A DNA stretch of 32,000 bases, taken from assembly GCF_001644705.1 (NCBI RefSeq), contig NZ_CP015137.1, positions 1,890,001 to 1,922,000 on the forward strand, in the 5' to 3' direction. The translations under genes were made by a program, and so were the position numbers. The stretch comes from Dickeya solani IPO 2222 (GTDB lineage: Bacteria > Pseudomonadota > Gammaproteobacteria > Enterobacterales > Enterobacteriaceae). Numbering within the stretch: position 1 is the first letter of the stretch; each line of letters begins with the position of its first letter. The notes under the pieces were generated by a model, which made no database searches, was not told the DNA's origin, and saw nothing but the letters and a program-made list of their open reading frames with translations. Positions 8,670-27,074 of this stretch are shown in pieces.

Positions 8670-9770
8670 TTACAACGAGTTCGCCGCCGGAATTTGCTGC
8701 GTAATACAGTGGATGTTGCCGCCGCCCAGCAGGATCTCACGGGCTGGCACACCGCTTACCAGGTAGTCAGGGAACATCTGTTGCAACAGCCCATGCGCCT
8801 GTGCATCGGTGCGTTCATCCAGCAGCGGGTAAATGATCTGCTGATTGCTGATCAGAAAATTGACGTACGACCCTGCCAGCCGCGACCCGGCGTTACGTTC
8901 AATGGCGTTGCCATCGGTCACGCCCGCCGCTTCTTCCGGCGTAGCGTACAGCGGACCCGGCGCCGGCAGTTTCCAGATTTTCAGCGCCCGTCCCTGCGCA
9001 TCCTTCACCTGCGATAGCACCTGATACGCCGCCAGAGAGCGGGCGTACTGTGGGTCGGTTTCATCGTCGGTCCAGTGCAACGCCACTTCGCCGGGGCGCA
9101 CAAAACAGCACATGTTGTCGATGTGACCGTCGGTTTCGTCGTTATACACGCCCTCTTCCAGCCAGATAAAGGCGGTGACGCCGAGATAATCCCGCAGCAG
9201 TTGTTCAATCTGCGCCTTGTTCAGGTGCGGATTGCGGTTCGGGTTCAGCAGGCACTCGGCAGTGGTCAGCAGCGTGCCTTCGCCATCGGTGTGGATGGAG
9301 CCGCCTTCCAGAATCAGCGGGGCGGCGTAACGCGCATCGCCGTGATACGCCAGCACCTGCGCCGCCACGTTTTCGTCACGACGCCAGTCTTCGTACAGTC
9401 CGCCCAAGTCACCGCCCCAGGCGTTGAACTGCCAGTCGACGCCACGGCGTTCGCCGGCGTCGTTCAGCACCACGGTTGGCCCGGTGTCGCGCATCCAGGC
9501 GTCGTCGCTTTCCATTTCCACCAGCGTGACGCCGGCCGGCATGACGCGTTTGGCCAGCGCCATCTGGTCGCGCGGTACGCCCATGATAACCGGCGTGGTC
9601 TGCGCAATCGCAGCGGCGACGGCGGCAAAGGTTTGCTGAGCCGGAATGGCATCCCCTTGCGAACGCCAGTTGTCGCGGCGATACGGCCACAACATCCATA
9701 CGGCGTCGTGCGGCGCCCATTCCGCCGGCATGGAGAAACCGTCCTGCAACGGCGTGGTCAGTTCAGACAT
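8670..9770 (-). CDS. aguA: Agmatine deiminase
   Basis: 366-aa ORF with the C-terminal catalytic-Cys motif [11 protein letters not shown] and an N-terminal [10 protein letters not shown] motif, both typical of AguA. Confidence 0.92.
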
Positions 9771-13676: not shown

Positions 13677-13878
13677 GATGTACTCCTGTTGAATTAAACC
13701 CCGCAAACAGCCTGCGCCAGCCCCTTTCAATACACCACGACAGTAACCGGACAGCAACCCGACAGTTGCCCGACATGCCCCGGCAACCGCGCCATCACAC
13801 GGATTTCACCTGCCGGCATGGACATCACTTCAGATGACGGGGAAAATACTGACTACCAGATATACGCCGGGAAACCTC

Positions 13879-14343
13879 ATGAAACGCCGACCTGCCTCAC
13901 GCCTGCTGATCCTCGATCCTGAGCAACGGGTGTTGTTATTCCTGTTCCATCATACCCGGGATGCCCTTGCCGGGGAGCGTTATTGGGCGACGCCGGGCGG
14001 CGCAGTGGAAAGCGGAGAAACGTTTGAGCAGGCGGCGTTGCGTGAACTGTGGGAAGAGACCGGCATCCGCCGTCAGGATCCCGGCCCCTGCCTCGCCGCC
14101 CGAACCTTTAACATGGCGATGCCCAACGGGGACACCGTGATTGCCGATGAACGGTTTTTTGTCATCCGCGTCACGGACAGCGCCATCCACACTGACGCAT
14201 GGACAGCACATGAACGGGAAGTGATGCGGGACCACCACTGGTGGAGCCGCGATGAACTGCTCGCCACGCAGGACCAGTTCTATCCGGAACAACTGGTTGA
14301 GATGCTGTGGCCGGCTACGGGCGAGGCATTCCTATCCAGTTAG
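13879..14343 (+). CDS. Nudix hydrolase
   Basis: Nudix box GGAVESGETFEQAALRELWEETGI. The start is placed at MKRRPASRLLILD (ATG 13879); the ORF track begins at 13834. Confidence 0.85.
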   Translation: MKRRPASRLLILDPEQRVLLFLFHHTRDALAGERYWATPGGAVESGETFEQAALRELWEETGIRRQDPGPCLAARTFNMAMPNGDTVIADERFFVIRVTDSAIHTDAWTAHEREVMRDHHWWSRDELLATQDQFYPEQLVEMLWPATGEAFLSS

Positions 14344-14960
14344 GAAGCCGGGGGAACAGGCCAGCTGATAGCTGGGGCACTGGCTGGGTCGGTGCGGTTT
14401 AACCGCACCAGATAGGTTTTCCAGTCTTTCAGTGCCTGTGTTTCCTGTTCGGTGGCAATATCCAATTCCTGCGCGTAAGTCAGCTCACGGATACGGTCAT
14501 GCGCCGTCTGACGCCGCATATCGCATTCCTGTCGGACTGCCTGCACCTGACTTGCCTGATGCGCCGCCGTATCCGTTACCCATTGCACACCATCCCAGCG
14601 GTCAAATTCGCTCGCTGGTGGCAACAAGGTCAAGTTGGCGGGTAACGGCCCCAGCTCACTCACCACCTGCGGCCGGCGCATCTGCGTATCGTAGGCAGTC
14701 TGCCCACGGAGATCCGGTACCTGTTCCCAACATAGGCCATCGGACGAACGGCGCAGTGCCTGTCTTTCCGCCACGGGCTGAGGCGGTTCATCGGCATAAC
14801 TGTGCGCCGGAATCCCTGTTCCCAACATCAGATATTCCTCGCTGCTACCATAATATTCACAGGTTACCGTATCCGCGTGATACACCCGTAGCCAGCCTGC
14901 CTCGGATGCCAGCCCATCCGCCGCCAGCACCGCGCGCGTTTCCTGCGTCGACACCACCAT
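14340..14960 (-). CDS. Phage tail-fibre assembly chaperone (Tfa / P2 gpG-like)
   Basis: About 206 aa with a pattern typical of Tfa proteins (YYGSSEEYLMLGTGIPAHSYADEPP, then a C-terminal region with W..Y...L.R). Its ATG overlaps the TGA of the upstream fibre gene (TGATG). Confidence 0.85.
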   Translation of the reverse strand: MVVSTQETRAVLAADGLASEAGWLRVYHADTVTCEYYGSSEEYLMLGTGIPAHSYADEPPQPVAERQALRRSSDGLCWEQVPDLRGQTAYDTQMRRPQVVSELGPLPANLTLLPPASEFDRWDGVQWVTDTAAHQASQVQAVRQECDMRRQTAHDRIRELTYAQELDIATEQETQALKDWKTYLVRLNRTDPASAPAISWPVPPAS

Positions 14961-16078
14961 CACGCAGCCCTCACGATGTAGTTAAAGGCAAGGTTACGGG
15001 GGCGTGCAACACCACAATAGGGATAGGGATCAGTTGCCGTTTGACCAGACACAATGTTAACTCGGATTGACGGATATTTGGCCGAGGTCAGTTCCGCGGT
15101 ATCCCAGCCTACATTGGCTTTTGTCGTTGCTTCGCCAACATTATTCAACGTCGCCATGTTCACATTGTTGGCAATATCGCCAACGATGAGTGATCCCGTC
15201 TGTGCTGACAAAATAGCGCGCCCGGCATCTACTCCTCGCCCATCATCCCAGCCACGAATAAATTCGCCGCGCAAATCCGGCAATACACCTGACGGATAGA
15301 CGACCGCCAGCCGTGGATACCGATTTTTATCAAACGCTTGACCGTTACATTTAAGCCAGCCCGCCGGGGCGGTAGCCTGCGGCCACGGCAATGGAATACC
15401 AACGATGTCATTAATATCCAGTTTTAGTTTGACGCTGTTGCCTGTTTGACCTGATAGCAAATTAATAGCGCCAGCAACAAACGCAGTGGTTGCCAGTTGT
15501 GTCGTATTGGTTCCTGCCACCGCTGTCGGCGCGGTGGGATTGCCGATTAACGCTGGGCTGGCAATCGGGGCATATTGCTTGTGCGGGTTGGCAGCCGCGA
15601 CGTGATCCGTTAACAGCGTGTCGGCATAGCGCCGCGTCGCCAGCGCCACTGTCGGATCAATATTCAGTGTTACCGCATCAGTACGGCTGACAATCAGAAT
15701 CATGCGCACCGTCTGTATCCGGCCCGACCCTTCCTTCAATTCTGGCTTATAGGTTTCCGGGCAGTTACCGACCGCGATCAGATTACCGTCCACATCGTAC
15801 AAACCGATTTCACGCAACCAGAACCCACCTTCATTTTCTGGAATCACTTGTTCGGCAATAATCTGGTTAGCATTGTTAGAATCAACAGTGAGCGAATTAA
15901 TTTTCCCGCGCCGTTTTTCATTGATCAGTTTGACCTGACTCGGGTCCGGCACCAACAGCGCACCGCCCCCATCTCCCACCCCCATCTGGGTAATTTCCAG
16001 TGGTTTTCCGGTCGAAATCGCTTCAGCCAATTTGAGCTCACCGACTCGGGTGAGCAACGTAAAGTATTTAATACCCAT
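14960..16078 (-). CDS. Tail fibre 1: P2 gpH-like N-terminal module plus a phage tail-collar C-terminal domain
   Basis: The N-terminus MGIKYFTLLTRVGELKLAEAI..LEITQMGVGDGGG..GGFWLREIGLYD resembles the P2 gpH / DUF3751 attachment domain. The C-terminus carries the collar motif PAGWLKCNGQAFDKNRYPRLAVVYPSGVLPDLRGEFIRGW. The start is at ATG 16078. Confidence 0.88.
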   Translation of the reverse strand: MGIKYFTLLTRVGELKLAEAISTGKPLEITQMGVGDGGGALLVPDPSQVKLINEKRRGKINSLTVDSNNANQIIAEQVIPENEGGFWLREIGLYDVDGNLIAVGNCPETYKPELKEGSGRIQTVRMILIVSRTDAVTLNIDPTVALATRRYADTLLTDHVAAANPHKQYAPIASPALIGNPTAPTAVAGTNTTQLATTAFVAGAINLLSGQTGNSVKLKLDINDIVGIPLPWPQATAPAGWLKCNGQAFDKNRYPRLAVVYPSGVLPDLRGEFIRGWDDGRGVDAGRAILSAQTGSLIVGDIANNVNMATLNNVGEATTKANVGWDTAELTSAKYPSIRVNIVSGQTATDPYPYCGVARPRNLAFNYIVRAA

Positions 16079-16160
16079 AGTTTCTCTCATCAAAATTACT
16101 TACCTGGGAAAGTCATACGACTTCGAGGGTGTGCTACTCATGAAAGAAAATGAAACGCTA

Positions 16161-16263
16161 TTTTTTTCAAGCGATTCATGCTCGTTATCATCGTGAACAA
16201 CATTATGCTATATGCCTGAGGAAATAACGCGATATGAGAGGTGTGGCATTCATGACACAACAG
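16161..16263 (-). promoter_or_regulatory. Conserved element A: candidate Ogr-type late promoter for fibre 1
   Basis: One of four homologous elements. On the gene strand it has CATAAT (complement of 16202-16207) with no -35, and a perfect TGT-N12-ACA dyad at 16242-16259 (-64..-47). Confidence 0.4.
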
Positions 16264-16303
16264 AGAAAACACTTAGAATGAGTGACTAATACTTTTTCTT
16301 GCC

Positions 16304-16333
16304 AAAAAAATGGTCTCAATCATTAATGAGACC
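16304..16333 (-). terminator. Rho-independent terminator of fibre 2
   Basis: On the minus strand, hairpin GGTCTCA-TTAATGAT-TGAGACC is followed by ATTTTTTT, about 80 nt after the fibre 2 stop. Confidence 0.7.
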
Positions 16334-16415
16334 AATGAATAAAAACCTAAAAAATGAATATCAGAAAAGAGAATAAGACAGAAAAATCCTCATAAACTCA
16401 TCATCAACCAGAATC

Positions 16416-17702
16416 TCATATAGCATATTTAGATATGGCAATAATAACCGTCGCATTTCCTGATGTTGCGTTACTCGCAGAAGCTACGATATGTCCCTCA
16501 TCAACAATCAGAATATCAGCATAATTATTTGACACCTCCATATTTGCAAACACATAATTTGTTGCCTGCTGACCGGAAACAGGACTCAGATTACTAGACA
16601 CTGTTATGGATAAAAGGCCATCTGCCGTACTACTCTGCCGTAATACCCCACTAATAGTTCTTGTATTCAATGGAATGAATTTACTAACGGGAATATCAAT
16701 ACCTGATGTATTTGGCAATCCAGAATAGACTCTTGTTCCAGGAATATGCACCTGCCTTCCAAAGACAGATAATACGGTAAACTTACCCGCCTTGACCGGC
16801 ACAACCGTCAATAATGCCGATGCTGCGTATCCATCCGGCATACTGGCTCCATTATAGATCTCCGGCAATTTAACTGAGGTGGCGTTAACCGCGAGCAAGC
16901 CAGACAACATCGTTACCGGATTATAAATGGCATAAATCCCGACAAACCCTTCATCAGGGACCGTTCCGGTATCCATCCCCCCAACGCCATTTTTTGTCAG
17001 ATCGATCGTCTTCTTGAATAAACCAATTCGATATTGGTTTCCCCCCAGAGCAGTTCCAACAATTATCTCATCGGCAGTAAATGTGGCGCTGGAAGAAGCG
17101 GAGGGAATATTCATCGTGGCATTTCGCGTCATGCCAATTACACCGGAGAATGAGCTCCTCACACCCAAATTCTCTATAAACTGAGCTTTATTCGTAATAT
17201 CCGTACCATTTTGAGCTTTAGCCAGTTTTCCGTCAGCCATGTTATCTACATACTGCCGGCTAGCCAGCACCACCGCCGGGTCGATTTTCAGCGACACCGC
17301 ATCAGTCTGACCGACCGCCAGAATCATGCGTACCGTCTGCACGCGGCTGGAGCCTTCCTGCATCTGCGGTTTATAGGTTTCGGGGCAGTTGGCCACCGCC
17401 ACCAGATTGTCATCGGCGTCATACAAACCGATTTCACGCAGCCAGAATCCACCTTCATGATCCGGAATTACCTGCTCGACAATAATCTGATTGGCGTTAG
17501 TCGGGTCGATACTCAATGAATTGATCAGCGCGCGCCGTTTTTCGTTAATCAGTTTGGTCTGTGCCGCATCCGGTGTCGGCAGCGTGCCACCAGCGTCTCC
17601 CACCCCCATTTGGGTAATTTCCAGCTGTTTTCCCAGCGCAATCGCATTCGCCAGCCTGGCTGCCCCCACCTGGGTAAGCAGAGCGGTATATTTTGTGCTC
17701 AT
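16416..17702 (-). CDS. Tail fibre 2: P2 gpH-like N-terminal module with a different, chaperone-less distal part
   Basis: 428 aa from MSTKYTALLTQVGAARLANAIALGKQLEITQMGVGDAGG, the gpH/DUF3751-like start. The ORF track extends 26 codons further upstream into the leader. It is about 95% identical by eye to fibre 3, except for the last 116 or so codons. Confidence 0.85.
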   Translation of the reverse strand: MSTKYTALLTQVGAARLANAIALGKQLEITQMGVGDAGGTLPTPDAAQTKLINEKRRALINSLSIDPTNANQIIVEQVIPDHEGGFWLREIGLYDADDNLVAVANCPETYKPQMQEGSSRVQTVRMILAVGQTDAVSLKIDPAVVLASRQYVDNMADGKLAKAQNGTDITNKAQFIENLGVRSSFSGVIGMTRNATMNIPSASSSATFTADEIIVGTALGGNQYRIGLFKKTIDLTKNGVGGMDTGTVPDEGFVGIYAIYNPVTMLSGLLAVNATSVKLPEIYNGASMPDGYAASALLTVVPVKAGKFTVLSVFGRQVHIPGTRVYSGLPNTSGIDIPVSKFIPLNTRTISGVLRQSSTADGLLSITVSSNLSPVSGQQATNYVFANMEVSNNYADILIVDEGHIVASASNATSGNATVIIAISKYAI

Positions 17703-17898
17703 AACGTGTCTCATCAGAATTAGCGATAAAGGGACCCATGCAAGGGTATGGAACAGATACCGCCACGCCTGTCGATACACGCTTTTCCAAGCGATTTCAG
17801 CCCGTTGTGGCAGTGGAGGACATTATGCTGACGAGCCAGCAAAAACGCGCGTCATAGGGGTTGGCGCAGTCATGGCACAACAGCGTGAAGAAAAGGCA
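16765..17898 (-). repeat. Direct repeat copy 1 (about 1.13 kb): fibre 2 body, leader and promoter element B
   Basis: Near-identical to 19741-20865 with one 9-bp indel (DGK). Homology ends at 16765 on the 3' side and at the IS boundary on the 5' side. Confidence 0.85.
17781..17883 (-). promoter_or_regulatory. Conserved element B: candidate Ogr-type late promoter for fibre 2
   Basis: Almost identical to element D. It has CATAAT (complement of 17822-17827) and a TGT-N12-CCA dyad at 17862-17879, with the same spacing as A and D. Confidence 0.4.
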
Positions 17899-17977
17899 GT
17901 GTAAGTATCCCGCTAAACCGAACCATTCATTTTTAGAGATCTTCCGACATACTGTTTATGTCCTCGAGGAGATCACC

Positions 17978-18244
17978 ATGCGTAAAGCCCGATTCACTGA
18001 GCACCAGATCATCGCCGTTCTCAAGTCCGTCGAAGCCGGACGTACCGTCAAGGATGTCTGCCGCGAAGCCGGCATTTCCGAAGCCAGCTATTACAACTGG
18101 AAAGCGAAGTTTGGTGGTATGGAAGCCTCTGATATCAAAAAGATGAAAGATCTGGAGGATGAGAATCGCCGTCTGAAACAGATGTTTGCCGATCTGAGTC
18201 TTGAGAATCGGGCATTAAAAGACGTCATTGAAAAAAAGCTTTAA
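17978..18244 (+). CDS. IS3-family transposase OrfA (HTH)
   Basis: MRKARFTEHQIIAVLKSVEAGRTVKDVCREAGISEASYYNWKAKFGGM is typical of IS3/IS407-group OrfA. GAGGAG precedes ATG 17978. A leucine-zipper-like C-terminus ends at the slippery site 18232-18238. Confidence 0.9.
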   Translation: MRKARFTEHQIIAVLKSVEAGRTVKDVCREAGISEASYYNWKAKFGGMEASDIKKMKDLEDENRRLKQMFADLSLENRALKDVIEKKL

Positions 18245-18249
18245 AACCA

Positions 18250-19089
18250 GTGATAAAGCGTGAGCTCGTCAGCTATCTGACGGCGGAATTTACGATGAGC
18301 ATCCGCCAGGCATGCAGGACGTTATCACTGAGCAGGACGGTATTCCGTTATCAGCCGGATACGCGACGTGGTGAGCCGGTGATTATGGCACTGACCGTGG
18401 CGGCTGAACGCTATCCGCGATATGGATTTAAAAAGCTTTTTCAGGTAATTCGCAGGCAGGACAATATCTGGAACCATAAAAGAGTTCACCGGATTTACTG
18501 CCTACTGAAACTGAATTTTCGCCGTAAGGGAAAGCAACGTCTGCCGGTGCGCAATCCGGCTCCGCTGGCGACGCCGAAGGCACTTAACCAGAACTGGTCG
18601 ATAGATTTTATGCATGATGCGCTGATCTGTGACAGACGCTTCCGGACCTTCAATGTGGTGGATGACTTTAACCGCGAAGCGCTGGCGATTGAAATTGACC
18701 TGAATATCACTGCGCAGCGGGTCGTTCGGGTACTTGACCGAATCGTGGCAAACCGCGGATATCCGATGAAGATGCGTATGGATAACGGGCCAGAGCTGAT
18801 CTCGCTGACGCTGGCACAATGGGCAGAAGAGCATGGTGTGATGCTGGAATTTATCAGGCCCGGCAAGCCAACGCAAAATGCATTTATCGAGCGCTTTAAC
18901 CGGACGTACCGGACAGAAATACTGGATTTTTATCTGTTCAGAACGCTGAATGAAGTACGGGAAATAACAGAGCGCTGGCTGACTGAATATAACAGCGAAC
19001 GGCCTCATGAATCCCTGAATAACCTGGCGCCGGAAGAATACCGGCTGATGACTGAAAAACCGGATATCTCAAAAAGTGCGTGGAATTAA
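18250..19089 (+). CDS. IS3-family transposase OrfB (DDE integrase domain), probably made as an OrfAB fusion by -1 frameshifting
   Basis: DDE motifs WSIDFMHD, MDNGPE and NAFIERFNRTYR are present. The frame is -1 relative to orfA and stays open back to the A AAA AAG heptamer. Confidence 0.9.
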   Translation: MIKRELVSYLTAEFTMSIRQACRTLSLSRTVFRYQPDTRRGEPVIMALTVAAERYPRYGFKKLFQVIRRQDNIWNHKRVHRIYCLLKLNFRRKGKQRLPVRNPAPLATPKALNQNWSIDFMHDALICDRRFRTFNVVDDFNREALAIEIDLNITAQRVVRVLDRIVANRGYPMKMRMDNGPELISLTLAQWAEEHGVMLEFIRPGKPTQNAFIERFNRTYRTEILDFYLFRTLNEVREITERWLTEYNSERPHESLNNLAPEEYRLMTEKPDISKSAWN

Positions 19090-19150
19090 AACGGGTGCAC
19101 TTACAACACAACACCGGTATGAAATGCTTATGAAAGAAAATGGAATACCA

Positions 19151-19269
19151 TATTTTTCAAGCGATTCATGCCCGTTGTTATCGTTAACAACATTATGCTG
19201 AACGCTTAACGCAATAACGCAATAACGCAATAACGCAATATAGGAAGCGTGGTGTTTATGGCACAACAG
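19151..19269 (-). promoter_or_regulatory. Conserved element C: orphan, spacing-altered copy of the promoter-like element
   Basis: It has the same blocks as A (CATAAT is the complement of 19192-19197, and CTGTTGTGCCAT the complement of 19258-19269). The spacing between dyad and -10 is 16 nt longer, and the element is followed by the IS rather than by a gene. Confidence 0.35.
19207..19238. repeat. Perfect octanucleotide tandem repeat (TAACGCAA)x4
   Basis: Read directly: four contiguous identical 8-mers inside element C. Confidence 0.95.
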
Positions 19270-19307
19270 AAAAAACTCTTAGCTTGTGTTACCCATCACA
19301 TTCTTTA

Positions 19308-19337
19308 CAAGAAAATTGCCTCATTTATTAATGAGGC
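19308..19337 (-). terminator. Probable rho-independent terminator of fibre 3
   Basis: On the minus strand, hairpin GCCTCATT-AATA-AATGAGGC is followed by AATTTTCTT, about 55 nt after the fibre 3 stop. Confidence 0.6.
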
Positions 19338-19391
19338 CAATGAATAAATCTAGAAAAAATTAATTTTATAAAAAATCGGCCTACTCATAGA

Positions 19392-20669
19392 TTATATTAA
19401 ATATCTAGAAACATGAGCTTCAAATGTTGGATTTCCTGATGTTGCATCACTTGTGGCAATAGAAACATAACCATCATTAACGATTACAACATCAGCATAA
19501 TTCTGCGAGATAAGTCCATTTGCTATAGTATAGGCTGTCATCTGCTGTCCAGATAAAACATTTTCACCACCACAAATTGTCATAGATAATAATCCAGAAG
19601 CAGTGCTACTTTGTCGAACATACCCACTTATAAGTTTAGTATTTAATGGAACAACACTACTAATAGAAACATTAAAATTTGTTGTGATTTTTAAAGTAGA
19701 ATATATTCTCTTGGGTGATATATATACGCATCGTCCTCGAACAGATAATAAGGTAAACTTACCCGCCTTGACCGGCACAACCGTCAATAATGCCGATGCT
19801 GTATATCCACCCGGCATATTGGTTCCGTTATAAATTTCCGGCAACTTGACCGAGGTGGCGTTAACCGCGAGCAAGCCAGACGCCATCGTCGCCGGATTAT
19901 AAATGGCATAAATCCCGACAAAACCTTCATCAGGGACCGTTCCGGTATCCATTCCCCCAACGCCAGTTTTTGTCAGATCGATCGTCTTTTCGAATAAACC
20001 AATTCGATACTGGCTGCCTCCCAAAGACGTCCCAACAATGATTTCATCGGCAACAAACCTGGCATTAGAAGAAGCGGAGGGGATATTCATCGTGGCATTT
20101 CTCGTCATGCCAATGACACCGGAGAATGAGCTCCTTACGCCCAAATTATCTATAAACTGAGCTTTATCGGCAATATCCGTGCCATTTTGAGCTTTAGCCA
20201 GAGCCATGTTATCTACATACTGCCGGCTAGCCAGCACCACCGCCGGGTCGATTTTCAGCGACACCGCATCAGTCTGACCGACCGCCAGAATCATGCGTAC
20301 CGTCTGCACGCGGCTGGAGCCTTCCTGCATCTGCGGTTTATAGGTTTCGGGACAGTTGGCCACCGCCACCAGATTGTCATCGGCGTCATACAAACCGATT
20401 TCACGCAGCCAGAATCCACCTTCGTGATCCGGGATCACCTGCTCGGCAATAATCTGATTGGCGTTGGCCGGGTCGATGTTCAATGAATTGATCGGCGCGC
20501 GCCGTTTCTCGTTAATCAGTTTGGTCTGTGTCGCATCTGGCGTCGGCAGCGTGCCACCAGCGTCTCCCACCCCCATTTGGGTAATTTCCAGCTGTTTTCC
20601 CAGCGCAATCGCATTCGCCAGCCTGGCTGCCCCCACCTGGGTAAGCAGAGCGATATATTTTGTGCTCAT
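19392..20669 (-). CDS. Tail fibre 3: paralogue of fibre 2 with a divergent C-terminal tip
   Basis: 425 aa from MSTKYIALLTQVGAARLANAIALGKQLEITQMGVGDAGG. It is colinear with fibre 2 and diverges sharply after ..VPVKAGKFT. Confidence 0.85.
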   Translation of the reverse strand: MSTKYIALLTQVGAARLANAIALGKQLEITQMGVGDAGGTLPTPDATQTKLINEKRRAPINSLNIDPANANQIIAEQVIPDHEGGFWLREIGLYDADDNLVAVANCPETYKPQMQEGSSRVQTVRMILAVGQTDAVSLKIDPAVVLASRQYVDNMALAKAQNGTDIADKAQFIDNLGVRSSFSGVIGMTRNATMNIPSASSNARFVADEIIVGTSLGGSQYRIGLFEKTIDLTKTGVGGMDTGTVPDEGFVGIYAIYNPATMASGLLAVNATSVKLPEIYNGTNMPGGYTASALLTVVPVKAGKFTLLSVRGRCVYISPKRIYSTLKITTNFNVSISSVVPLNTKLISGYVRQSSTASGLLSMTICGGENVLSGQQMTAYTIANGLISQNYADVVIVNDGYVSIATSDATSGNPTFEAHVSRYLI

Positions 20670-20865
20670 AACGTGTCTCATCAGAATTAGCGATAAAGGG
20701 ACCCATGCAAGGGTATGGAACAGATTCCGCCACGCCTGTCGATACACGCTTTTCCTAGCGATTTCAGCCCGTTGTGGCAGTGGAGGACATTATGCTGACG
20801 GGCCAGCAAAAACGCGCGTCATGGGGGTTGGCACAGTCATGGCACAACAGCGCGAAGAAAAGGCA
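19741..20865 (-). repeat. Direct repeat copy 2: fibre 3 body, leader and promoter element D
   Basis: Near-identical to 16765-17898. Confidence 0.85.
20748..20850 (-). promoter_or_regulatory. Conserved element D: candidate Ogr-type late promoter for fibre 3
   Basis: It has CATAAT (complement of 20789-20794) and a TGT-N12-CCA dyad at 20829-20846. It lies immediately downstream of the cpxP terminator. Confidence 0.4.
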
Positions 20866-20880
20866 CCACAGAATGCGGGC

Positions 20881-20907
20881 AAAAAAAAGCCCTCCATCAA
20901 GGAGGGC
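20881..20907 (-). terminator. Rho-independent terminator of cpxP
   Basis: On the minus strand, GCCCTCC-TTGAT-GGAGGGC is followed by TTTTTTTT. Confidence 0.88.
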
Positions 20908-24129: not shown

Positions 24130-26331
24130 ATGAAAGGATTAGCCTTACTGGCTGGAATCATCGCTACGCTGGTACAGATGCCGGCATACGCTTCCGGCGA
24201 TGGCGTATGCGGTTTTTCCGATGCCGATTGCGGTATGCCCGCGCTTCCCTATCTCCTGCCGGATAACGACACCCGCACCAATCTGGTGCTGCTGCAGAGC
24301 AGCCGTAATCGTATTCCGCTGCCGATCCCGCAGCCGGAGCCGGATCAAACCAGTTCCCGCGTAGACCCGTTTACCGCTTACCGCGTGATGGGACTGGCTG
24401 CCACCGAAGACAATAGCGATAGCGCGGAAACCAACGCGCCAGCCGACCCCAACGCCCCCTCGGACGACAAAGCCGACGCAGAGAATGCCTCGCTGCTGCA
24501 AAAAGCCACCCAGCTGCATTTTCCGGATGCCGAGCTGAGCAAGCTGCGCGACCTGACGCCGGTTGATCTGGACGGACGCTGGGTTTCCAACGATCTCACC
24601 ACGCTGGAGAGCTTTTTCGATCTGCTACTGGCGGACAAGGAACTGAACGATGCCCAGCGCACCCAACTGGCGCTGGTGCGAATGAGAATGCTGTCCAGCG
24701 AATACGGCGCCGACAACGCCAATACCGATCTGTCCAGCATACCGGACGTCGGCCACGCCGGTGAGCTGCGCCGCTACCTCGCCAACGCAGTGACATTTTA
24801 TGAAGGACAGTTGGAACAAGCGGACAAAGGCTTCCAGCAGTTGTTGCCAGCCAGCCAGCCGTGGGTAGCGGAAACGGCCCGTTATATGCTGATTAGGGTA
24901 TCGATTAATCTGGCGATGAAAGACGCGCTGGACGAATACAACATGTTCGATCCCCGCAAGATAGACAAGGCCGCCGGGAAACAGGCGGTTCAGCGTATCG
25001 ATGAGTACCTGAAACAGTATCCGCGGGGGAAATACGCCGACTCGGCCGAGGGCCTGTACCGCCGGGCCGAGTGGATCAGCGGCGACACCGTCGCGCTGGC
25101 TGGTCGTTTTAGCCAGGTACTGGCGTCCGCCAAAAGCGTGGATCAGTTGCAGGCCATCAGCAATGAAATCGACAACAAGCTGCTGGAAGACAACCAGTTT
25201 GTGACCTCGGCCGATACGCCGGTCCTGATGCTGGTGCAGGACATCAAACGCTTGCGCAGCCCTGACGGCTGGATGACGCTGCCCGCCTTGACGCAGGAGG
25301 AAATCACCCGTCAGCAACCGCTGTTTGAAAAAGCGGGTATGCAGGAAGAGTTTCACTATCTGCAGGCGGCGTTTCAGTATTATCAGCAGCGGGACTACGC
25401 CTCGGTACTGAAAACCTTGCCGATGACCACTGCGGAAGATATCACCGGCGTCACCGTCTTCAGCAGCCAGGTGCTGCGTGGGCTGGCGATGCAGCGGCAG
25501 AAACAGTGGGACGACGCGGAGGCGCACTGGCGCCATCTGCTGATGTTGAAAACCACCGATACCCAGCAACAGTTCCTGCAACTGATGCTGGCGCAAACTC
25601 TGGTGGACAGCGGCCAGCCGGGACGGGTATTCACGCCGGAAAGCCCGGTCAAAAACCTTCGTTTTCGCTCCGCCATCCTGAAAGTCAGCGCCGATGCCGA
25701 GCTGCTGCACCGGCAGACCGGCCCCCAGCAAACACATGAAGAACGTGCCATCGCCCTGCACACGCTGTTGACCAAGCAGCTGACACATCGCGATTACGCC
25801 GGTTTTCTCAAAGACAGCGAGCTGCTGAAAACCATCGCGCCGCTGAAAAGCACCGAGAACATGAGCTGGAACGAGGAAGACCTGACCGTATTCGGCTGGG
25901 ACGGCAGCGACACCGAGGAGGGGTACGAATGCCCAACCCTGCAGGAAACAGTCACCACCCTGAGCCAGAACGCCAATGACGCCCACGCCCTCAACTGTCT
26001 GGGCGAGTTCTTCCTGCGCACCGGCAACGGCGTCGGATTCGACTGGGGCGAAAGCAACATGCTCAACGGCCTGACGGACGCCGCCGCCCAGTATCCGGGC
26101 CAGGAATTCAATCGTCTGAACAACTACATGCAAGTGATCGCCGACGCGAAAGCTGCGCCGGAAGACAAGAGTTACGCGCTCTACCGCGCCATCTACTGTT
26201 ATGCGCCAAGCGGTTACAACGACTGCGGGTCGCAGGATATCAGCAAGGAAACGCGCAAGGCGTGGTTCCGGCAGCTTAAAACGGACTTTAAAGGCAGCCA
26301 ATGGGCGCGACAGCTCAAATACTATTGGTAG
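24130..26331 (+). CDS. Large secreted protein of unknown function (733 aa)
   Basis: Long ORF in the only sensible frame. It has an N-terminal signal peptide (..LVQMPAYA-SG), an acidic/proline-rich low-complexity region, helical TPR-like stretches (YPRGKYADSAEGLYRRAEW) and a Cys-containing C-terminus ending YYW. GGAAAAGGA precedes the ATG. Confidence 0.8.
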   Translation: MKGLALLAGIIATLVQMPAYASGDGVCGFSDADCGMPALPYLLPDNDTRTNLVLLQSSRNRIPLPIPQPEPDQTSSRVDPFTAYRVMGLAATEDNSDSAETNAPADPNAPSDDKADAENASLLQKATQLHFPDAELSKLRDLTPVDLDGRWVSNDLTTLESFFDLLLADKELNDAQRTQLALVRMRMLSSEYGADNANTDLSSIPDVGHAGELRRYLANAVTFYEGQLEQADKGFQQLLPASQPWVAETARYMLIRVSINLAMKDALDEYNMFDPRKIDKAAGKQAVQRIDEYLKQYPRGKYADSAEGLYRRAEWISGDTVALAGRFSQVLASAKSVDQLQAISNEIDNKLLEDNQFVTSADTPVLMLVQDIKRLRSPDGWMTLPALTQEEITRQQPLFEKAGMQEEFHYLQAAFQYYQQRDYASVLKTLPMTTAEDITGVTVFSSQVLRGLAMQRQKQWDDAEAHWRHLLMLKTTDTQQQFLQLMLAQTLVDSGQPGRVFTPESPVKNLRFRSAILKVSADAELLHRQTGPQQTHEERAIALHTLLTKQLTHRDYAGFLKDSELLKTIAPLKSTENMSWNEEDLTVFGWDGSDTEEGYECPTLQETVTTLSQNANDAHALNCLGEFFLRTGNGVGFDWGESNMLNGLTDAAAQYPGQEFNRLNNYMQVIADAKAAPEDKSYALYRAIYCYAPSGYNDCGSQDISKETRKAWFRQLKTDFKGSQWARQLKYYW

Positions 26332-27074
26332 TCCGTTGTACCGTTGTGCTGACGAGTCTGCTGTGCCTGAGTGTTACGGCGCACAGCGCCACCGTTGACG
26401 CCGCCCGCTATCAGGCCTTCTGGCTGTGGGCGGCGGTTCAGCCGCAACCGGTGTTGTCTCAGGCCGACACGCTTTACCTGCATCAGGGGGAAATCGCCCG
26501 CCGCGACGGCAAGGCCGTGTTTCTGCGTCAGGGGATCCCAGCCAGCGCATTGCCGGTCAGACACCTATGGTTGTCGTTTCGGGTGTCCGAACTGCGCCTC
26601 GGCGAACCGGAACTGCGGCGTCTGCTGCAACTGCGGCAGCGTTGGGCCGCCGCCGGCAACCGGGTCGACGGCATCCAGATCGATTTCGACGCCAAAAGCC
26701 ATCATCTGTCGCACTATGTCGCCTTTCTGCAAACGCTCCGCCAGCGGTTGCCGCCCGACTGTCGCCTGAGCGTCACCGGGCTGTTGGACTGGGCCAAAAC
26801 CGGCGATGTCCGGCAACTCAACCGTCTGAACGGGGTGGTGGATGAACTGGTGGTGCAGACCTATCAGGGACGGCGCACGGTGGAAAATTACGCCGCGTAT
26901 CTGCCGGCGCTGATGAACCTGAAGCTGCCGTTCCGTCTCGGGCTGGTGCAACACGGTAAATGGGATGAACAGTGGCAGCGGCGGCTGGCGGCGTCGCCGT
27001 TCTACCGGGGCGAGGTGGTGTTCCTGCTCAACCCGATACCGGCACGCCGCTCCCCCATCCTGCAACAGCGTTGA
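26301..27074 (+). CDS. Secreted hypothetical protein (possibly DUF3142 family; unverified)
   Basis: 257-aa ORF overlapping the end of the 733-aa gene. The start may instead be TTG 26325, giving the signal peptide VVRCTVVLTSLLCLSVTAHSA. The internal motif VDGIQIDFDAKS is reminiscent of TIM-barrel glycosidase-like families. Confidence 0.7.
   Translation: MGATAQILLVVRCTVVLTSLLCLSVTAHSATVDAARYQAFWLWAAVQPQPVLSQADTLYLHQGEIARRDGKAVFLRQGIPASALPVRHLWLSFRVSELRLGEPELRRLLQLRQRWAAAGNRVDGIQIDFDAKSHHLSHYVAFLQTLRQRLPPDCRLSVTGLLDWAKTGDVRQLNRLNGVVDELVVQTYQGRRTVENYAAYLPALMNLKLPFRLGLVQHGKWDEQWQRRLAASPFYRGEVVFLLNPIPARRSPILQQR

Follow-up and report, generated by a model that had tools for sequence, protein, structure and literature searches.

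Published work on phage P2 and on R-type pyocins places the docking of a tail fibre onto the baseplate in the N-terminal domain of the fibre. In P2 the fibre gene comes fifth in the V-W-J-I-H-G operon and lacks a separate promoter; the P2 late regulon (promoters pP, pO, pV and pF) is read from promoters that lack a −35 element and carry a dyad about 55 nucleotides (nt) upstream of the transcription start site (TSS). These late promoters are defined by the sequence TGT-N12-ACA and by dependence on Ogr, a CX2CX22CX4C zinc-finger activator (PMC3931495). Here we describe a block of P2-type tail-fibre genes beside cpxP in a 32,000-nt stretch of the Dickeya solani IPO 2222 genome (NZ_CP015137.1, positions 1,890,001 to 1,922,000; the window). 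The orphan fibres belong to the same PF12571 family as P2 gpH, the chaperone of fibre 1 belongs to the same family as gpG, and the predicted promoters follow the grammar of the Ogr regulon, but the Dickeya genes form several separate late units far from baseplate genes.

The presumed partner of the block is dickeyocin P2D1, the P2-like R-type tailocin of D. dadantii 3937 (PMC10719855). Clusters of this type are widely conserved across Dickeya (PMC10719855; 10.1101/2024.09.28.615580, the bioRxiv version of PMC11974492), are mitomycin C-inducible, and have the same late-promoter core as the block and a related fibre anchor. After mitomycin C, transcript levels of fibre, tube and sheath of P2D1 are highest at 2 h (PMC12297226). 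Published descriptions of P2D1 treat the fibre as cluster-encoded only, and the P2D1 literature that we searched makes no mention of a cpxP-side array or of fibre genes other than those of the cluster. In a Xenorhabdus preprint the D. dadantii tailocin locus is counted with those that have no additional fibre genes, in contrast to the xenorhabdicin cluster with its anchor-less, invertase-driven cassettes (10.1101/2025.04.19.648921). The phrase 'orphan tail fiber' was absent from the papers that a literature search with either-term matching listed.

Xenorhabdicin, the carotovoricin type, and the Mu and P1 segments likewise store a receptor-binding repertoire for one contractile particle and so diversify its killing range. 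Their cassettes lack an anchor, lie inside the cluster, and are expressed one at a time after inversion by an adjacent invertase, whereas the Dickeya array consists of complete genes with a promoter each, detached from the cluster, presumably co-expressed, and without an invertase. A parallel in regulation is the satellite phage P4, whose late promoters (Psid and PLL) are trans-activated by the Ogr protein of the helper P2. There, as proposed here, unlinked genes carry the activator site of the helper's late promoters and fire in step with its morphogenetic genes; P4, however, is a mobile satellite that redirects capsid size, and the Dickeya array is a fixed chromosomal locus of fibres and chaperones only. 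The consensus is cited in PMC3931495.

An engineered R2 pyocin takes chimeric receptor-binding proteins supplied in trans, provided that they bear the cognate N-terminal anchor, and its killing is retargeted by a fibre made from another locus; balanced timing and amount matter (PMC11762384). That system is artificial (a plasmid induced with isopropyl β-D-1-thiogalactopyranoside), and it loses efficiency once timing or amount is out of balance. By relying on the tailocin's own late-promoter logic, the Dickeya array would solve both naturally.

The components of the locus are of known kinds (P2 fibre, Tfa, Ogr promoter, tailocin). What is new is a detached, genus-conserved, slot-structured array of complete, independent late fibre units. 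The original prediction, made from the letters of the window, knew of no described detached multi-fibre locus of this kind, and we found no prior description in the P2D1 literature searched. It took the block for a stand-alone store of alternative fibres for a baseplate encoded elsewhere, a reading that our analysis supports. We consider it probable that the block is the D. solani version of a genus-wide fixed fibre array, detached from a P2D1-type tailocin but transcriptionally wired into it.

Fibres, presumed partner tailocin and late promoters

The block contains three complete P2-type tail-fibre genes and one Tfa gene, all on the minus strand; the coordinates and strand predicted for the three fibres were confirmed (Table 1). 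All three proteins cover PF12571 (Phage_tail_fib) end to end (residues 1–149/150 of 150, E = 3e-60 to 4e-62), in agreement with the predicted common N-terminal module of about 150 residues of the P2 gpH type, and PHROG tail-fibre families match them with E values down to 1e-130. The two distal architectures that had been proposed also stand. Fibre 1 combines a Collar domain with an adjacent Tfa gene, and from the 4-nt overlap of the two genes we infer that they are co-transcribed. The Tfa is 50% identical to that of the D. solani tailocin cluster, and fibre 1 is 62–64% identical to the tailocin's own fibre over its full length, with a common Collar architecture and a common C-terminal end (RPRNxAFxYIVRAA). 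Fibres 2 and 3 have no Pfam match in their distal parts and no adjacent chaperone gene. These distal parts share 42–52% identity with the tail fibres of Yersinia vB_YenM phages, with BcepMu gp52 and with fibres of Ralstonia and Burkholderia phages, and they weakly match the Mu gpS structure. Fibre 3 is 96% identical to fibre 2 in the N-terminal anchor and 72% in the C-terminal part. All three proteins recur with identical sequence in about 34–43 assemblies, several of them D. solani.

In some D. solani assemblies, frameshifts break fibre 2 into 50 + 293 and 234 + 186 residues (L003, 8474–9663; L004, 8379–9663), which could be either strain-level pseudogenisation or assembly error.

PDB sequence searches with the anchor domain, as a single sequence and as a profile, gave no meaningful match. 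The best matches of an AlphaFold2 model of the anchor (predicted local distance difference test score, 78) were a tail-structure chain of HFTV1 (Haloferax; E = 1e-5) and the baseplate protein gp105 of phage A511. Homologues found with the anchor alone as query were mostly truncated or partial proteins, and the tailocin fibre was not directly among them.

The array fibres do not lie downstream of gpJ-gpI as in P2; the nearest gpJ/gpI are 1.9 Mb away. A P2-like baseplate encoded elsewhere in the genome, as the stand-alone reading of the block supposes, is found in a P2D1-type tailocin cluster on the same D. solani contig as the block (JABAOP010000001.1; cluster at 8,882–29,493, L031; block at 1,915,265–1,936,383, L004). 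The cluster starts with genes for a CI-type repressor and RepB, followed by gpA, X, R, V, W, J, I and the fibre; then come an invertible stretch with cargo genes, a resolvase, a Collar fragment, Tfa, sheath, tube, E, T, U, D and Ogr. As expected from the earlier reading, the N-terminus of the cluster fibre is related to those of the orphans, with 67–73% identity to the three over the first 150 residues, compared with 51–53% for P2 gpH. The last gene of the cluster, after gpD, encodes a 63-residue Ogr/Delta protein (PF04606) with 62% identity to P2 Ogr and precisely the cysteine spacing CX2CX22CX4C. A 73-residue open reading frame (ORF) between gpA and gpX was considered as Ogr and rejected. 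In loci lacking the far (gpU) end of the cluster, tblastn with P2 Ogr gave matches only in Kosakonia-type prophages, and with the Kosakonia Ogr as database query no Dickeya protein was among the 120 matches listed.

Upstream of each fibre gene of the window stands a P2-type late promoter. It consists of a TGT-N12-ACA/CCA dyad within TGTTGTGYCAT and, 34–35 nt further on, GCATAATG. The dyad of fibre 1 is an exact TGT-N12-ACA; those of fibres 2 and 3 are TGT-N12-CCA, as in P2 pO and pF. The −10 element CATAAT lies 44–49 nt from the dyad centre, giving a predicted TSS at about +56 and, for fibre 3, a leader of about 113 nt; a search for a sigma-70 −35/−10 pair at the fibre promoters found none, and no −35 element. 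The left half of the dyad is a 12-mer core, CTGTTGTGYCAT, of which the window has four copies (0.03 expected), each of them on the fibre strand and inside an intergenic element of roughly 100 nt that is itself present four times in the block. This core matches the P2 pO site CTGTTGTGTCA..., and also pV and pF. The Ogr sites annotated in the P2 record AF063097 (pO, GCTGTTGTGTCAGTGATAAGCCA; pV, ATGTTGTCTGGTAGTTCTACAA; pF, GGTTGTGCTGTCGATTAGCCAAC) are the same motif as the orphan promoters; their dyad centres lie 55.5–58.5 nt from the mapped pO and pF starts, and the orphan geometry, with predicted TSSs, agrees.

The same core stands upstream of the gpX and sheath operons in four tailocin clusters, those of D. 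solani, D. dadantii 3937, Dickeya sp. CSL RW240 and D. poaceiphila (GCA_000406125.1). Between gpI and the tailocin's own fibre gene lie a hairpin resembling a terminator and some 290 nt of GC-rich sequence (L031, 10613–10970), and the fibre gene has a weaker site, TGTTGTCTCCCCACGCTAACAAC ... CATACT (TGTTGTC...ACAAC). By its sequence it appears to be an independent late unit even inside the cluster. A whole-region alignment of this gpI-fibre spacer with the orphan intergenic element gave no overall homology, and only the short promoter motif is common to the two.

The dyad and GCATAATG were found 147–181 nt upstream of the ATG in 52 of 53 fibre genes from 14 sequences, with the consensus TGTTGTGcCAT.gc.G..aCAaC, then 34/35 nt, then GCATAATG. 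Three fibres of this set are those of tailocin clusters, with CATACT as the −10 element and a distance of 168–293 nt. The dyad and the −10 element are conserved as footprints, and the sequence between them varies. Over 259 kb, the composite pattern matched 47 times, 43 of them upstream of fibre genes (mean in shuffled sequence, 2.1). Three of the other four matches lie inside or at the edge of arrays, two of these upstream of a fibre-less chaperone gene.

In two slots (L038, near 6852; L040, near 7199) a complete late-promoter copy precedes a lone Phage_tail_APC chaperone gene, which suggests that the fibre gene has been lost. The window itself has a fourth promoter copy that reads into an insertion sequence (IS) with no gene behind it. 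Its gap from dyad to −10 is 50 nt, compared with 34, and the spacing-constrained composite pattern does not match it; since expansion of the TTGCGTTA repeat has stretched the spacer, this relic is probably inactive. In Rfam searches the fibre leaders matched no known RNA, and the sole match above the gathering score was isrN, inside the IS.

Several further features of the tailocin region were seen. Directly upstream of the gpX-operon late promoter (L031, 5900–5975) are four tandem copies of about 15 nt (TTGTTGTATTTCC-A/T-G), each with a TTGTTGT half-site; these could be additional half-sites for the activator. The D. solani tailocin fibre ends inside a segment of about 5 kb whose orientation differs between assemblies (L030 and L031, 10970–17900; L032, 10970–16510), the fibre being 401 residues long in one orientation and 386 in the other. 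The segment carries phytase-like, MFS transporter and Smr cargo, with alternative Collar-type C-terminal fragments at its flanks and a serine resolvase adjoining, and looks like an invertible fibre switch of the Mu/P1 type with captured metabolic genes. Two D. solani complete genomes have a tailocin region that is apparently partly duplicated or rearranged: one has gpD truncated at 215 residues and joined to DUF2732-traR-gpA (L033, 1–2500), the other a second copy of the Smr-MFS-phytase-Collar-resolvase stretch (L036, 10349–16495). Contigs labelled Vagococcus sp. WN89Y (L007, L013) carry enterobacterial P2-type fibre genes, with an anchor 68% identical, and an Ogr gene, and are probably assembly contamination.

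The array in other Dickeya genomes

Genomes gathered through the fibre anchor, an identical CpxR and individual proteins yielded 15 other Dickeya genomes (16 with D. solani). In all 15, the interval from cpxP to the Nudix/fieF side is occupied by 2–6 complete PF12571 genes with chaperones, and there is no baseplate, sheath, tube or any other phage gene at this site in any of the 16; baseplate genes are also absent from the 32-kb window and from the 10 kb around the site in each genome. The block might have appeared inside a complete prophage in relatives, an outcome that the original prediction had named as telling against it; what the 15 relatives carry at the same site is fibre-only arrays. 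Array-bearing genomes include D. undicola, D. oryzae, D. chrysanthemi Ech1591, D. dadantii subsp. dieffenbachiae, D. dadantii 3937 and D. poaceiphila. D. dadantii 3937 has a four-gene array at 181–199 kb and its tailocin at 2.73 Mb. In D. poaceiphila (an old draft with possible frameshift errors) the tailocin region is apparently disrupted (L019), and four of the five array genes are intact.

The distal domains of the arrays vary (Collar, Gp53-like_C, Gly_rich_2, or no Pfam match), as do the chaperones (Caudo_TAP, Phage_tail_APC). Across species, anchors are syntenic and particular to their slot: the slot next to cpxP always begins with MSTKY(T/I)ALLT and is 84–97% identical across species whatever distal part follows, and later slots have conserved anchors of their own. 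A neighbour-joining tree without support values groups all array anchors in a single clade beside the tailocin fibres. The ratio of nonsynonymous to synonymous substitution rates (dN/dS) of the anchors between orthologous slots is 0.06–0.15 (dS, 0.4–1.5), compared with 0.05 for the tailocin's own fibre, and hardly any of the 50 surveyed array genes is disrupted. The C-terminal part of fibre 1 is 93% identical to that of a D. dadantii array gene, the N-terminal anchors only 71%. This mosaic pattern of identity and that of fibres 2 and 3 point to swapping of C-terminal modules between slots and strains.

Role of the array and competing explanations

In the mechanism that we propose, DNA damage derepresses the tailocin cluster, a step published for P2D1, and the Ogr/Delta zinc-finger activator encoded by the cluster would then be made. 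Ogr would bind the TGT-N12-ACA-type dyads about 55 nt upstream of the starts, at promoters without a −35 element, and would switch on the gpX and sheath operons together with the fibre gene of the tailocin itself and each orphan fibre gene beside cpxP. The genes and sites for these steps were found; the activity assigned to them is our proposal. Fibres 2 and 3 would be made from monocistronic units with their own terminators, and fibre 1 along with Tfa. The 150-residue anchor would let each trimer compete with the cluster fibre for the six gpJ/gpI sockets of the baseplate, so that a single induction may yield particles, or a mix of particles, with several receptor specificities. New specificities would come from slots and strains trading C-terminal modules, an exchange that the mosaic identities show.

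We see an even chance that, more broadly, Dickeya has moved tailocin receptor binding into a separate array as old as the genus, with at most five syntenic slots (as many as six genes in one assembly), built of units that answer to Ogr. If so, a single SOS event would set free particles that are multivalent or of mixed kinds, tailocin fibres encoded in trans and coupled through a regulon would have their first natural example, and the slot-specific anchors, conserved since the genus diverged, would mark non-redundant roles in docking or assembly. The usual guide to tailocin specificity is the fibre gene within the cluster; should Dickeya particles also use 2–6 fibres encoded megabases away, predictions of the killing spectrum from the cluster only are incomplete. 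The array would be a candidate explanation for the poor match between fibre sequence and killing range reported in soft-rot bacteria, and for the killing by P2D1 of many Dickeya species and even Pseudomonas. It may also offer a natural design for multivalent tailocins, in which anchor and late promoter make up a portable unit, relevant to engineered bacteriocins for crop protection. The regulon of a phage late activator may extend to fixed chromosomal genes far from the phage-derived cluster.

Three sets of observations weigh against a tailocin-coupled array. Gel-band analysis of purified P2D1 of strain 3937 by liquid chromatography–tandem mass spectrometry identified six phage-related proteins, both fibres among them being cluster-encoded (PMC10719855); in this strain, with its four-gene array, the orphans were either absent, minor, or outside the eight excised bands. 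The array anchors are 67–77% identical to the tailocin fibre anchor, and fibres of P2-like prophages of other genera reach 72–74%; the anchors are no closer to the tailocin than to these prophage fibres, so their sequence alone is no proof of compatibility with the tailocin sockets. Finally, the D. solani array is reduced, IS-interrupted, and has fibre 2 frameshifted in some strains, and this interruption and these frameshifts indicate that individual array genes are dispensable.

The comparison of anchors bears on a different role, in which the array serves resident or infecting P2-like temperate phages rather than the tailocin and is switched on by any Ogr-type activator. The fibres would then be built into progeny virions, either widening their host range or mis-targeting the progeny as an altruistic anti-phage measure. 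The promoters, with a motif equal to the P2 pO and pF sites, should respond to any activator of the Ogr/Delta family; the anchors are about equally similar to the prophage fibres of other genera and to the tailocin fibre; and some D. solani and D. dadantii genomes have a second gpI homologue (P0130; only 69% identical to the query gpI, which is that of Dickeya sp. CSL RW240, L018) that is possibly from a true P2-like prophage. The array, however, sits at a fixed chromosomal site with slots that are syntenic genus-wide, and the P2D1-type cluster too is reported to be widely conserved in Dickeya; additional P2-like prophages are sporadic. We regard such a role as unlikely; it and service to the tailocin are not mutually exclusive.

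Module exchange, which is clear between slots and species, could also mean that the genes are kept mainly as a recombination reservoir, donating receptor-binding modules by gene conversion to the tailocin fibre gene. The Collar architecture and C-terminal end common to that gene and fibre 1 fit such traffic, and stored cassettes are known from Xenorhabdus and Pectobacterium systems. Those cassettes, though, have neither N-terminal anchor nor promoter and lie beside an invertase inside the cluster (10.1101/2025.04.19.648921), whereas the array genes are full length, with a start codon, a constrained anchor, their own late promoter and terminator, and often their own chaperone, and the window has no invertase or crossover repeats. 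We therefore give this explanation little credence. An invertible cassette or shufflon is excluded, the window having no invertase or resolvase gene, no crossover repeats and no anchor-less genes; its sole inverted repeat is a palindrome inside the IS, and the invertase that does exist lies inside the tailocin cluster.

That the block is what decay has left of an old P2-like prophage or of a second tailocin, and is now functionless, is very improbable and strongly disfavoured: the IS insertion, the dead fourth promoter copy, the fibre 2 frameshifts of some strains, and the AT-rich, foreign-looking intergenic stretches and distal gene parts (G+C fraction 0.39–0.47, compared with about 0.58–0.60 in the flanks) fit decay, but nearly all surveyed array genes are intact with N-terminal dN/dS of 0.06–0.15 at dS of up to 1.5, the promoters persist as footprints around varying sequence, and the lack of any other phage gene at the site in 16 genomes is unlike random decay.

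Layout of the block and its surroundings

Read on the minus strand from cpxP, the order is fibre 3, the gene-less promoter copy, an IS3-family element, fibre 2, fibre 1 and tfa (Table 1). The original prediction described the fibres and the chaperone correctly and overlooked the IS3-family element, the fourfold intergenic repeat and the terminators after fibres 2 and 3. It was right about the boundaries, the Nudix gene on one side and the cpxP terminator on the other, and about the lack of other phage genes in the window: apart from the fibres, Tfa and the IS3-family element, the window holds only housekeeping genes (glpF/K/X, tpiA, pfkA, fieF, cpxPRA, ugpQC and others). As it also said, fieF and cpxP are neighbours in E. 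coli, where pfkA-fieF-cpxP-cpxR-cpxA run contiguously.

Table 1. Features of the orphan fibre block and its boundaries (window positions)
Feature	Position	Strand	Details
Nudix gene	13834-14343	+	3' end shares 4 nt with the tfa 3' end; convergent
Tfa-type tail-fibre assembly chaperone, 207 residues	14340..14963	-	PF02413, E = 1e-31; PHROG 105
Fibre 1, 372 residues	14960..16078	-	PF12571 N-terminal anchor and Collar PF07484 distal part
P2-type late promoter, fibre 1	16195..16263	-	Dyad TGTGTCATGAATGCCACA 16259->16242; -10 CATAAT 16207->16202; predicted TSS near 16195
Intrinsic terminator downstream of fibre 2	16311..16334	-	8-bp stem, then TTTTTTT
Fibre 2, 428 residues	16416..17702	-	PF12571 anchor and BcepMu/Yersinia-phage-type distal part
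P2-type late promoter, fibre 2	17815..17883	-	Dyad TGTGCCATGACTGCGCCA 17879->17862; -10 CATAAT 17827->17822
IS3-family element, 1206 bp	17900..19105	+	orfA 17978-18244, orfB 18250-19089; PF01527 and rve domains
Fourth promoter copy (probable relic)	19185..19269	-	Dyad 19265->19248; 8-nt repeat TTGCGTTA, about 4 copies, roughly 19207-19240
Intrinsic terminator downstream of fibre 3	19318..19337	-	Terminator prediction
Fibre 3, 425 residues	19392..20669	-	PF12571 anchor; paralogue of fibre 2
P2-type late promoter, fibre 3	20782..20850	-	Dyad TGTGCCATGACTGTGCCA 20846->20829; -10 CATAAT 20794->20789; predicted TSS near 20782
cpxP terminator	20889..20907	-	Upstream boundary of the array

Longer GTG-started ORFs, reaching to 17780 and 20747, are artefacts; the true starts of fibres 2 and 3 are the ATGs given in the original prediction. 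An artefact of the same type was seen in a deposited array fibre of D. dadantii 3937, ADM96385.1 (L050, 8001–9461), whose start is 92 codons too early (486 rather than 394 residues) and spans the gene's own promoter.

The IS3-family element sits at the junction of the fibre 2 and fibre 3 units and does not belong to the fibre system. Its ends have the sequence TGTAAGT..., and there is no target-site duplication (flanks CAG and ACA), on which account the element may be the trace of a recombination junction and not of a simple insertion. The isrN match (143.6 bits; 18243–18385, minus strand) is antisense within the transposase region.

Downstream of cpxA, positions 24130–27074 of the window encode a 733-residue protein without a Pfam match, followed by a DUF3142 protein. 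This pair is kept in the same position in every Dickeya locus seen.

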